DNA from: Escherichia coli
Lineage (GTDB): Bacteria; Pseudomonadota; Gammaproteobacteria; Enterobacterales; Enterobacteriaceae
Reading direction: 5' to 3' (one strand)
Assembly (NCBI RefSeq): GCF_030013595.1
Contig: NZ_CP122768.1
DNA length: 64,000 bases
Shown here: one piece after another, positions 57,168-58,622 of the stretch
Layout: each line of letters starts with the position of its first letter
Position numbering within the stretch: the stretch's first letter is position 1
Program-made: the position numbers and the translations under genes
Notes under the pieces: model-generated
Told to the model about the DNA's origin: nothing
Databases searched by the model: none
What the model saw: only the letters and a program-made list of their open reading frames with translations

Positions 57168-58622
57168 ATGTTAGTTAGTAAAAGCAACGAAATTAACACT
57201 AGCACATTTATAAATAGTGGAAATTGTAATGAAAGAAAATCTTCTAAATCCATGGAGTTACTAGCTTATAGTATTATAAAATTAATTTGTAAAGAAGCTG
57301 CCTCAGGGACGTATAACGGTGCTCTTGAAATTTTACAAAAAATGATGTCTAAATGTAAATATCATGAAGGCAATGCTTTTGTCATTATGGGAGCCGGAGA
57401 ACAATTAAAACGTATTAAATATGATGCTAATGAAAATAAATTAAAAGTATACAACGTACACTTTGATAATAATCAAGAGTTAGTTGCTGATGGTGAGCCT
57501 GACGTAGTATTTTTAAAAAAAACGGTGTGGGAAGACCTTCTCGTTAAACTAAAGCTGGAGAACAAAGAAAATGCGGTTTCTGAAATTAACCTGTCATCTA
57601 ATAAAAATAATGTTGATCAGTTTATTGAATGCGCTAAGAGAAATGAACAGACCCTATTCGGCAATATAAGAAAAAGTGATTTTCATGTTGCTTCACTTCA
57701 GCCAGGTAGAACGCGTAGTGTTATTTCAGAAACGCCGCCAAATGACTGTATGGAATCACATAATTTATATGAAAACCACACAGATAAGGTTTCAACTGTA
57801 ACTAAAAATTCTCAGCAAGTTAAAGGTCACTATGGAGATAAGTTGAAAGAAATGCAGTTGTTCCTCAACCAGATGAGCAATGCACTTCAACAGGATTCAT
57901 CTTTGTTAGAGTCAAAGGAACACACCATAGATATTCAAGAAAAAACGAATAAGTTTGTGCAGCATTTTCAGCGGGTATTATTTGATAAAAATGGAAGGTC
58001 ATCAGAGTTTCTACTTAATTTTTATGAGTGTTGCTATAAGTTTTTACCAAGAGCGCAGCCTCAAGATAAAATAGATAGCTATAATTCAGCACTGCAAGCT
58101 TTTTCCATCTTTTGTTCATCTACGTTGACACATAATAATGTAGGGTTTAATTTCAAATTATTTCCAGAAGTCAAGCTGTCTGGAGGAGAGCTTGAAACGG
58201 TATTCAAATACAAAAATGGCAATTTTGTCTGGGAGATAGCCAGAATTAAAATTACTCTCCCAAAAGAAGAGGGTGGTTTATATAATTTACGTGGATTGGA
58301 TTTTAAGGGATGCTTCTTTTCTGGACAGAACTTCAGTAACTATGATATTCAATATGTGAACTGGGGAACGTCATTGTTTGATCTTGATACTCCATGTATT
58401 TTTAATGCGCCTGCTTACAACAAGAGTAATGAAAAATCATTAGAACGCGTCAGCGAAAACGGTTTAAGTGGAGTCTTGTCTGATCGTAATAAAAAAATAA
58501 AACTCATCACGGGTGTGGCACCATTCGATGATATTTTATTTATGGATGATGACTTTGATGATAACTCCCCTGAGGATGGTCCCGTTGAGAATAGTCCTGT
58601 TGTGAATAGTCCCCTTGTATGA
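57168..58622 (+). CDS. Uncharacterized 484-aa islet protein: polar Ser/Asn/Thr-rich N-terminus, pentapeptide-repeat-like segment, acidic C-terminal tail
   Basis: Single long ORF in a strongly AT-rich block; segment NLRGLDFKGCFFSGQNFSNYDIQYV resembles pentapeptide repeats; tail DDILFMDDDFDDNSPEDGPVENSP; no signal peptide seen. Confidence 0.7.
   Translation: MLVSKSNEINTSTFINSGNCNERKSSKSMELLAYSIIKLICKEAASGTYNGALEILQKMMSKCKYHEGNAFVIMGAGEQLKRIKYDANENKLKVYNVHFDNNQELVADGEPDVVFLKKTVWEDLLVKLKLENKENAVSEINLSSNKNNVDQFIECAKRNEQTLFGNIRKSDFHVASLQPGRTRSVISETPPNDCMESHNLYENHTDKVSTVTKNSQQVKGHYGDKLKEMQLFLNQMSNALQQDSSLLESKEHTIDIQEKTNKFVQHFQRVLFDKNGRSSEFLLNFYECCYKFLPRAQPQDKIDSYNSALQAFSIFCSSTLTHNNVGFNFKLFPEVKLSGGELETVFKYKNGNFVWEIARIKITLPKEEGGLYNLRGLDFKGCFFSGQNFSNYDIQYVNWGTSLFDLDTPCIFNAPAYNKSNEKSLERVSENGLSGVLSDRNKKIKLITGVAPFDDILFMDDDFDDNSPEDGPVENSPVVNSPLV

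Follow-up and report, generated by a model that had tools for sequence, protein, structure and literature searches.

The open reading frame at 57168 to 58622 on the + strand of the window (the whole stretch of 64,000 nucleotides of Escherichia coli DNA analysed here) is ypjCB, confirmed as the unbroken allele of the pseudogene pair ypjC/ypjB of K-12. On balance, the explanation we prefer is that intact ypjCB is an orphan gene exclusive to E. coli, carried as cargo by a decayed islet, and that its DUF5508 domain is probably the functional unit, a putative binding module that may be used conditionally. The annotation question is settled, in that the K-12 y-genes ypjC and ypjB have this AT-rich protein as their intact ancestor. 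For work on the E. coli 'y-ome' the intact allele is preferable to the K-12 remnant.

The intact form of a gene interrupted in K-12

The ORF listing, the NCBIfam model NF050179 and the RefSeq annotation support a coding sequence of 484 amino acids plus a stop codon, with an ATG start. Given the base composition of ypjCB, stops should occur at intervals of about 12.6 codons, and 484 open codons would arise by chance with a probability of about 4e-18. Sequence reading places a Shine-Dalgarno-like GAGGA at 57156 to 57160 (+ strand), 7 nt 5' of the ATG. A sigma-70 promoter-like TTGTCT-16-TATAGT lies at 57084 to 57111 (+ strand); it is a consensus match only from a pattern scan, in which the number of sigma-70-like sites around ypjCB was not above shuffle expectation. 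For the ileY-ypjC spacer of K-12, a constitutive RpoD promoter and an H-NS site have been listed (Shimada et al. 2014, PMC3946193), and silencing of ypjCB by H-NS is to be expected.

The protein matches the NCBIfam family NF050179 'YpjCB' with 961.5 bits against a curated cutoff of 650, residues 1-484 being aligned to positions 1-465 of a profile of 465. The two-domain layout of the family is present: an N-terminal DUF5507 domain (PF17612, Pfam 4.4e-75; aa 1-160, 57168 to 57647, + strand), which is fast-evolving, and a C-terminal DUF5508 domain (PF17621, 9.1e-148; aa 234-484, 57867 to 58619, + strand). The window protein thus has in common with the family both the layout and the chromosomal position, and the name 'ypjCB' is used by RefSeq on DNA 99.9% identical to the window (locus L001). 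A reading made from the sequence alone (hereafter the sequence-only reading) had conjectured that the ORF may be the intact form of a gene split in K-12. This was borne out, because the K-12 gene is the same one with a stop at codon 161; the K-12 copy is also shorter by 35 residues (about aa 221-255). The same reading had found no characterised family to which the protein could be assigned, a view that calls for correction: the family is already catalogued and named, as NF050179 comprising DUF5507 and DUF5508, and is not new. Profile searches of Pfam and NCBIfam placed the protein in its own family only. Pfam, NCBIfam, PDB and PADLOC yielded no enzyme signature and no family other than that of the protein itself, and the sole match in PHROGs was likewise its own unannotated family, phrog_30093.

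A low-GC islet between glaH and ssrA

ypjCB has a GC content of 0.344 and a GC3 of 0.295, compared with GC contents of 0.54-0.57 in the core genes glaH, lhgO and gabD. Its codon usage is foreign-looking, with ATA making up 29% of Ile codons and AGA/AGG 54% of Arg codons. The gene belongs to a low-GC islet, about 11 kb long, that has glaH on one side and the tmRNA gene ssrA on the other and that, according to the GC profile and annotation, starts near 53390 and continues into ypjA. The islet comprises, in order, an amylase-like gene, the tRNA gene ileY, ypjCB, a fragment of a Pin-like recombinase gene and the autotransporter gene ypjA.

The first of these, an alpha-amylase-like gene of 750 aa (53524 to 55776, - strand; ORF and RefSeq; Alpha-amylase_C 2.7e-5, Alpha-amylase 8e-4; GC 0.379), is the intact counterpart of a pseudogene annotated at the same position in K-12, which has been called ygaQ (PMC8193136). 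The tRNA gene ileY, with anticodon CAT (56336 to 56411, + strand), was detected by ARAGORN, by the Rfam tRNA model (73.7 bits) and by RefSeq as tRNA-Ile, and lies 756 bp 5' of ypjCB; an Rfam scan of 55700-59600 returned this tRNA only, plus a sub-threshold antisense artefact. On the 3' side, the serine recombinase (Pin-like) fragment (58983 to 59150, + strand) is an exact match to the 'recombinase family protein, incomplete' of L001. It is followed by the ypjA/ehaD autotransporter adhesin gene (59426 to 64000, + strand), named after RefSeq at the homologous locus, which runs past the window end, has NCBIfam Ag43-like repeats and is frameshifted in the window, its two reading frames overlapping at 59974-60073. 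The gene order, with ileY on the 5' side of ypjCB and the recombinase fragment and ypjA on the 3' side, is identical in the window and in loci L001-L004 and L007-L014. The earlier statement that ypjCB is the only long ORF of the islet 3' of ileY stands for the interval between ileY and 59426, but the islet is larger than first described, since it includes the amylase-like gene and ileY and extends into ypjA.

About 44% of complete E. coli genomes lack the islet as one block, the breakpoint lying just past glaH; in the ST131 strain '131', glaH directly abuts ssrA. IS-mediated deletions have been documented (PMC3032704), and other elements use ileY as an integration site (PMC8193136). The horizontal origin proposed in the sequence-only reading is supported by the low GC content, the rare codons, the ssrA/ileY hotspot, the recombinase fragment and the absence of the islet as a block, and we regard ypjCB as of foreign origin. 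We suggest that it would have been cargo of an old islet, now decayed.

ypjCB is an orphan gene restricted to E. coli

With the same position and annotation, ypjCB was found in 3,067 of 5,426 complete genomes, always on the chromosome. The allele of the window is a minority haplotype, present at 99% DNA identity or more in 333 genomes, while the alleles of 2,188 genomes are only 80-90% identical to it at the DNA level. Alleles that are intact abound: a single 90% cluster contains 2,012 member sequences, and other intact alleles each occur on up to 718 contigs.

No full-length relative was found outside E. coli among 1.84 billion representative proteins, 100,044 species genomes and phages. An exhaustive HMMER search of the 1.84e9 representative proteins recovered one full-length YpjCB cluster and, at E <= 1e-3, 46 matches, of which all but one are YpjCB proteins or fragments. 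The exception, P0154, is a 2,688-aa Ig-repeat protein whose E-value of 1.5e-7 reflects a score inflated by summing about 30 repeats; its best single repeat has 28% identity to YpjCB (BLASTP E 5e-4), which may be a weak hint that residues 330-385 are beta-rich. Other candidates were also set aside: a divergent fragment, P0129, is a broken ypjCB copy on a 1.2-kb contig; the matches among non-E. coli species representatives are two contaminant-like contigs; and the apparently plasmid-borne matches are chromosome-sized records (4.8-4.9 Mb) and a single internal fragment, flanked by IS1, on an IncHI2 plasmid. The phage collection contained no match to ypjCB. ypjCB is thus an orphan gene restricted to E. 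coli.

Allelic mosaicism and selection on the C-terminal domain

The alleles of ypjCB are mosaics, with at least 45 recombination events (Rm >= 45) and with blocks of 99-100% identity adjoining blocks of 80-88%, and intragenic recombination shuffles them extensively. Residues 8-28 alone occur as 12 haplotypes, in which the sequence varies and the composition is kept. ypjCB offers a clean example of an orphan confined to one species whose alleles are strongly mosaic and repeatedly truncated in their N-terminal part.

The strength of selection differs along the protein. Overall dN/dS is 0.67-0.69, compared with 0.02-0.15 in the flanking genes, whose dS is similar to that of ypjCB. Residues 1-270 evolve at a rate indistinguishable from neutral (0.85-0.94), and the sub-regions of DUF5507 (0.64-0.93) do not differ from neutral either. 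Such values would be expected if ypjCB were a functionless relic, left behind by a dead mobile element and on its way to being lost. Purifying selection is nevertheless highly significant in two blocks, aa 271-340 (57978 to 58187, + strand; dN/dS 0.23, P = 6e-10 versus neutral), where a helical hairpin and the first part of a beta-meander are predicted, and above all aa 371-410 (58278 to 58397, + strand; dN/dS 0.16, P = 3.5e-5; pairwise dN 0.009), and it acts on this C-terminal part only. In a test for positive selection no region had a dN/dS significantly above 1, so diversifying selection on ypjCB is unsupported; the windows above 1 in a pairwise scan were discarded, having few synonymous sites behind them.

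The pattern of inactivation can be read in both directions. At least five independent inactivations were found among 13 sampled loci, K-12 included, along with in-frame indels such as a 35-aa deletion in O157, O145 and K-12 types; together with the loss of the islet from about 44% of genomes, the documented IS-mediated deletions and the binding of H-NS at the promoter region, these would accord with a relic. Against this, the four independent point inactivations all fall within codons 119-204, leaving at least 255 C-terminal codons open, so that the C-terminal domain has been spared by all of them. Moreover, divergent alleles that remain intact are separated by 139-161 nt, and the neutral probability that no premature stop arose is 0.002-0.005 per pair; selection keeps ypjCB open. 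With intact alleles as abundant as described above, we consider it unlikely that ypjCB is a mere relic. An overall dN/dS of 0.69, at least five inactivations in 13 loci and islet loss of about 44% also fit a gene under loss.

A short repeat motif in the constrained region

The second constrained block holds seven consecutive pentads at residues 372-406 (YNLRG, LDFKG, CFFSG, QNFSN, YDIQY, VNWGT and SLFDL). Of 20,000 shuffles that preserved composition only 5 attained the pentad score, and the period-5 pattern is non-random and the most conserved segment of YpjCB. Like the pentapeptide-repeat proteins (PF00805, Qnr, PipB2, EspX), the pentads have hydrophobic centres preceded by D or N, but the run of seven is short and degenerate, and the PF00805 model has eight repeats. 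Pfam Pentapeptide (PF00805) did not match the full protein; aa 307-484 alone gave a match below threshold, limited to residues 373-391 (i-E 0.15, 12.1 bits), and the alignment of the motif to the Qnr chain 3pss was weak (E 0.4).

A leucine-rich repeat (LRR) offers another description of the same region. Residues 361-384, ITLPKEEGGLYNLRGLDFKGC, fit one LRR unit (LP..IG.L.NL..L.L..N/C) of the kind found in the Leptospira proteins LIC11098 and LIC10831 (4u08, 4u06). In a search of PDB with aa 355-424, this segment could be aligned with each repeat of LRR chains at a whole-sequence E of 8e-5, while every single alignment has an insignificant i-E above 30. In contrast to LRR proteins, YpjCB has one recognisable unit and lacks an NEL or other effector domain, and no Pfam LRR model matched the full protein or aa 307-484. 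The PDB search was set aside, its LRR matches being repeat-inflated and those to Qnr and antibody VH insignificant. The pentapeptide-repeat-like segment noticed earlier is real as a periodicity, but it misses the Pfam threshold and is fitted about equally by a single LRR unit.

Sequence searches of solved structures with the full protein and with the family profile returned no match. AlphaFold2 gave an unusable model of full-length YpjCB (19 alleles, pLDDT 36) and a low-confidence one of aa 262-470 (12 alleles; pLDDT 55, pTM 0.53), in which helices are predicted at 280-295 and 298-321 with pLDDT of about 70. A beta-helix had been put forward as a check on the pentapeptide-like segment; the non-random period of five stands, but the models show only scattered short strands at 366-413 and no beta-helix, with a pLDDT there of about 45-58. 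Fold searches recovered the protein's own family or noise only.

The two ends of the protein correspond to their earlier description. Ser, Thr and Asn make up 47% of residues 1-30, compared with 23% of the whole protein, and the N-terminus has no hydrophobic stretch, the maximum Kyte-Doolittle mean over 19 residues being 0.87. YpjCB is thus without a Sec signal, as the sequence-only reading of a polar, Ser/Thr/Asn-rich N-terminus held, and without a membrane segment. The tail that had been called strongly acidic (aa 450-484; 58515 to 58619, + strand) carries a net charge of -10 and includes the invariant MDDDFDD, columns M459-D465 of the allele alignment. Speculatively, from its letters alone, MDDDFDD might mimic an SSB tail or be a LIR-like motif, and YpjCB might have a Cys/His catalytic pair.

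Possible roles of YpjCB

We propose that the C-terminal DUF5508 domain would be the functional unit of YpjCB, built of a helical hairpin, a beta-meander, a short solenoid-like repeat of LRR or pentapeptide character and an invariant acidic and aromatic tail. It may serve as a protein-binding module rather than as an enzyme, an idea that rests on sequence motifs only, both AlphaFold models being of low confidence. YpjCB would probably be used only under particular conditions, and such conditional use would explain its frequent loss and silencing. The part of the protein to focus on is DUF5508, aa 271-460: purifying selection acts nowhere else in YpjCB, and both the conserved beta-repeat motif and the acidic tail lie in this domain.

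The sequence-only reading had been reminded of secreted effectors of the PipB2/EspX type. If YpjCB were a type III secretion substrate (a LEE or ETT2 effector), its Ser/Asn/Thr-rich N-terminus would be the secretion signal, and a C-terminal solenoid with the acidic tail would engage a host protein. The LRR fold is also used by IpaH/SspH-type effectors. The polar N-terminus without a Sec signal would suit this role, as its composition is kept across the 12 haplotypes, but the N-terminal 270 residues, where an effector would have its chaperone-binding region, show a neutral evolutionary rate and frequent truncation. The constrained period-5 motif, with its weak Pfam Pentapeptide match and its likeness to LRR units of PDB chains, could be taken in the same sense; it comprises just seven pentads below the Pfam threshold, however, and the models, though of low confidence, have no beta-helix. 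The LEE-positive O157:H7 and O145 strains sampled carry intact alleles, yet ypjCB is also widespread in LEE-less commensal and laboratory lineages. As a low-GC island gene silenced by H-NS it would resemble an effector gene, but the neighbourhood annotation contains no T3SS genes, chaperone gene or lambdoid prophage, and no phage-borne copy was found. Finally, PipB2 and EspX are T3SS effectors to which YpjCB has no detectable homology: the exhaustive HMMER search recovered its own family and no pentapeptide effector, and Pfam, NCBIfam and PDB likewise revealed no homology to these or to any known effector. The earlier comparison is not upheld, and we judge a role as a secretion substrate very unlikely.

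We give equally little credence to a conflict protein, that is, a factor in phage exclusion, an abortive-infection sensor or an agent of inter-strain competition, in which the mosaic, rapidly evolving half would keep pace with a variable antagonist. The extreme mosaicism and the old haplotype blocks of an accessory gene confined to one species are compatible with this idea, but dN/dS is nowhere significantly above 1, and dS does not exceed that of the flanking genes, thus giving no sign of unusually old balanced alleles. The ssrA integration hotspot adjoins, and in K-12 an element with toxin-antitoxin and antirestriction genes is located there; nonetheless, ypjCB is a single gene with none of the partner genes typical of defence systems, and no defence-system profile of PADLOC-DB matched YpjCB at E <= 1. 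Deletion of the K-12 ypjC pseudogene led to increased colonisation of a biofilm by pathogenic E. coli, an effect that was modest and was not reversed by constitutive expression (PMC3646849), so this evidence comes from a pseudogene allele and is uncomplemented. It is the only phenotype reported.

A further and highly improbable reading is that YpjCB is an E. coli-specific factor against a host or competitor, with a new, short solenoid-type binding fold in its conserved C-terminal domain and a recombining, near-neutral N-terminal half in which balancing selection, not drift, maintains diversity. Such a factor might leave the cell by a Sec-independent route, for instance ETT2 or the T3SS of the LEE, or it might work intracellularly against invaders.

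The ypjCB family

The ATG-initiated ORF of 484 aa in our ORF listing at 57168..58622 (+) is ypjCB, a gene already catalogued though uncharacterised. NCBIfam NF050179 'Ecoli_YpjCB' covers the protein end to end (961.5 bits, curated cutoff 650), with Pfam matches to DUF5507 at residues 1-160 and DUF5508 at 234-484; the family has been given a name with no function attached. The sequence-only reading had assigned the protein to no characterised family, which stands in that the family is uncharacterised but not in that a named family exists; its observation of the gene was correct. 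In K-12 the copy is annotated as a pseudogene interrupted by a stop, at codon 161, and the sequence-only suggestion that the ORF represents the unbroken version of the split K-12 gene (ypjC and ypjB) was therefore right. The K-12 type also lacks approximately 35 residues. In a DNA search, ypjCB was present in 3,067 of 5,426 complete E. coli genomes, always on the chromosome and almost always once per genome, labelled either 'ypjCB: YpjCB family protein' or 'DUF5507 domain-containing protein'.

A GAGGA motif lies 7 nt 5' of the ATG, and the reading frame is borne out statistically: at its base composition a stop is expected every 12.6 codons, and the chance of 484 open codons is approximately 4e-18. 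As proposed, the gene is less GC-rich than its core neighbours (0.344, with GC3 of 0.295, versus 0.54-0.57 in glaH, lhgO and gabD); ATA accounts for 29% of its Ile codons and AGA/AGG for 54% of its Arg codons. The polar N-terminus (47% Ser/Thr/Asn in residues 1-30) and the acidic tail (net charge of -10 in residues 450-484) were likewise recovered. A simple Kyte-Doolittle measure reveals neither a Sec-type signal nor a membrane segment, because no 19-residue mean exceeds 0.87.

An accessory islet at ileY and ssrA

The gene order is gabT-gabD-lhgO-glaH, an amylase-like gene (-), ileY, ypjCB, a recombinase fragment, a 39-aa ORF and ypjA/ehaD, beyond which the homologous loci compared continue straight into ssrA or into an element inserted there. 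The low-GC tract begins near 53390, approximately 200 bp beyond glaH, and takes in the amylase-like gene and ileY. A 7.2-kb glaH-to-ypjCB query had matches in 5,399 genomes but was covered to at least 80% in only 2,884, with many genomes breaking exactly at query position 1887 (window ~53386); in the ST131 strain '131', ssrA is 683 bp from glaH and the entire block is missing. Because the block breaks near 53386 or is missing in many genomes, these comparisons indicate that the islet is an accessory remnant of approximately 11 kb at the ssrA/ileY hotspot. According to previous reports, ter-carrying elements use ileY for attachment (PMC8193136), and IS-mediated ileY deletions have occurred in strains W and B (PMC3032704). 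At 58983-59150 (+) lie 56 codons of a serine (Pin-like) recombinase gene, probably left over from the element that brought the islet in.

The tRNA gene ileY (56336-56411, +; anticodon CAT) is tRNA-Ile in RefSeq and 'Met' in ARAGORN, a mislabelling noted in PMC3032704. ARAGORN also placed a tRNA-Arg(tcg) at 22968-23039 (-), overlapping tRNA-Arg(acg) at 22948-23024 (+) in a Ser/Arg tRNA cluster; the minus-strand call is probably a false antisense one. Both genes flanking ileY are rich in ATA (29-32% of Ile codons, versus 0-3% in core genes). The amylase-like gene (53524-55776, -; GC 0.38) is further uncharacterised cargo of the islet, with dN/dS of 0.09-0.33. It is intact here at 750 aa, and both K-12 and the O157:H7 strain examined carry it as a pseudogene; its product has a weak Pfam Alpha-amylase match (8e-4) and approximately 260 N-terminal residues without assignment.

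The 39-aa ORF lies at 59374-59493 (+). The segment 59170-59400 (+), which is upstream of ypjA and includes the start of this ORF, has a paralogue (83-86% identity) at another place in most E. coli genomes, annotated around ymgJ and present even where the islet is lacking. The autotransporter gene ypjA/ehaD (59426-64000, +) is split and runs to the window end; its frames are open at 59426-60073 and from 59974 onwards, and a frameshift is thus implied in the overlap, 59974-60073. In strain DG341-1, otherwise 99.9% identical, ypjA/ehaD is annotated as intact, and its ypjA diverges from that of the window.

Taxonomic range

Among 1.84 billion representative proteins searched exhaustively with HMMER, there was one full-length YpjCB cluster (P0078), plus fragments. 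The sole other match, a 2,688-aa Ig-repeat protein, was rejected as a relative, its score being the sum of many weak repeat alignments. When one genome from each of 100,044 species was scanned with two exact peptide patterns, which very divergent relatives could escape, only two short, contaminant-like contigs carried ypjCB. These contigs, from Planococcaceae MAG UBA3370 (locus L017, 2.8 kb) and Arthrobacter agilis DSM 20550 (locus L018, 291 bp, coverage 0.59), encode ypjCB at 73-90% identity, and their likeliest source is E. coli DNA contaminating the assemblies. No match was found in a phage search. Matches in plasmid collections were discounted, being chromosome-sized records (4.8-4.9 Mb) and one IS1-flanked fragment. 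On the conjugative IncHI2 plasmid NZ_MN732922.1 (locus L006), an internal piece at 5971-6363 between IS1 copies corresponds to residues ~168-322 of the type with the 35-aa deletion, and resembles a stretch of chromosome picked up through IS activity. On this evidence, ypjCB is an orphan of E. coli and Shigella only.

Selection, inactivation and mosaicism

In Nei-Gojobori comparisons of the window allele with those of K-12, O157 and PK-F-10122, ypjCB showed dN of 0.07-0.12, dS of 0.09-0.17 and dN/dS of 0.57-0.82, while gabD, lhgO and glaH had similar dS and dN/dS of merely 0.02-0.08. Synonymous and non-synonymous changes in 16 alleles, counted by parsimony on region-specific trees, gave dN/dS not significantly different from neutral for residues 1-40 (0.89) and 81-270 (0.85), and far lower values for 271-340 (0.23, P = 6e-10) and 371-410 (0.16, P = 3.5e-5). 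Purifying selection is limited to the C-terminal domain, and the N-terminal half is near-neutral, recombining and often truncated.

Divergent intact alleles are separated by 139-161 substitutions, and after as many random substitutions in simulation the frame was still open in just 0.2-0.5% of sequences; thus, selection maintains the ORF. At least five independent inactivations were found among 13 loci inspected: stops at codons 161 (the K-12 type) and 119, two distinct 1-bp deletions and an IS5-flanked truncation. The four point inactivations (loci L002, L008, L009 and L012) all fall in codons 119-204, within the N-terminal 42% of the gene, and each leaves at least 255 C-terminal codons open; with four events, this placing is suggestive rather than decisive. 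As the C-terminal domain is open in all four, and K-12 annotation formerly treated it as a gene in its own right, ypjB, with the conserved Met195 as its start, it may possibly be expressed alone in 'pseudogene' strains. The high dN/dS and repeated loss would suit a functionless relic; however, the maintained ORF and the significant constraint on the two blocks argue against that explanation.

All four gametes occurred in 42% of informative site pairs (Hudson-Kaplan Rm at least 45), blocks 99-100% identical to the window allele adjoin blocks of 80-88%, and residues 8-28 form 12 discrete haplotypes among 121 proteins, which indicates that the alleles are strongly mosaic. Such mosaicism and the location at an integration hotspot might point to a conflict or defence protein, but YpjCB has no PADLOC match, and no region in the 16-allele parsimony counts had dN/dS significantly above 1.

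A conserved period-5 motif

The pentapeptide-like segment described from sequence extends to seven pentads at residues 372-406, with a score that only 5 of 20,000 shuffled versions of the protein attain. It coincides with the constrained block 371-410, in which pairwise dN is 0.009 and dS 0.108. When the C-terminal fragment was scanned alone, Pfam Pentapeptide reached an i-E of 0.15, at residues 373-391. The overlapping residues 361-384 (ITLPKEEGGLYNLRGLDFKGC) align to every repeat of Leptospira LRR structures, with a whole-sequence E of 8e-5 and every individual alignment insignificant; the pentapeptide-repeat protein Qnr scores E 0.4. From the shuffle score and the constraint, we judge the motif to be real and conserved; it may be a pentapeptide, LRR or other beta-repeat.

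AlphaFold2 models had a mean pLDDT of 36 for the full-length protein (19 alleles) and a pLDDT of 55 with pTM 0.53 for aa 262-470 (12 alleles). The second model contains a helical hairpin (280-321) and a three-strand meander (330-363), each with a pLDDT of ~70, and just short scattered strands at 366-450 (pLDDT 45-58); no beta-helix is predicted, which at this level of confidence counts neither for nor against one. The proposed PipB2/EspX-like secreted effector, a candidate T3SS substrate with which the compositional features agree, is not supported by homology to effectors, genomic linkage or the structural models. The DUF5508 domain is the probable functional unit, a putative binding module consisting of a solenoid-like repeat and an invariant acidic/aromatic tail.

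Expression and phenotype

In the study by Da Re et al. (2013), EAEC 55989 colonised a commensal biofilm modestly better when K-12 ypjC was deleted, constitutive expression made no difference, and attempts to obtain a ypjC mutant of 55989 did not succeed (PMC3646849); the results bear on the K-12 pseudogene allele and are difficult to interpret. For the K-12 ileY-ypjC spacer, Shimada et al. (2014, PMC3946193) list an H-NS site as well as a constitutive RpoD promoter, and YpjCB may be used conditionally and normally be silenced by H-NS. In the window, a consensus scan placed a promoter-like site at 57084-57111.
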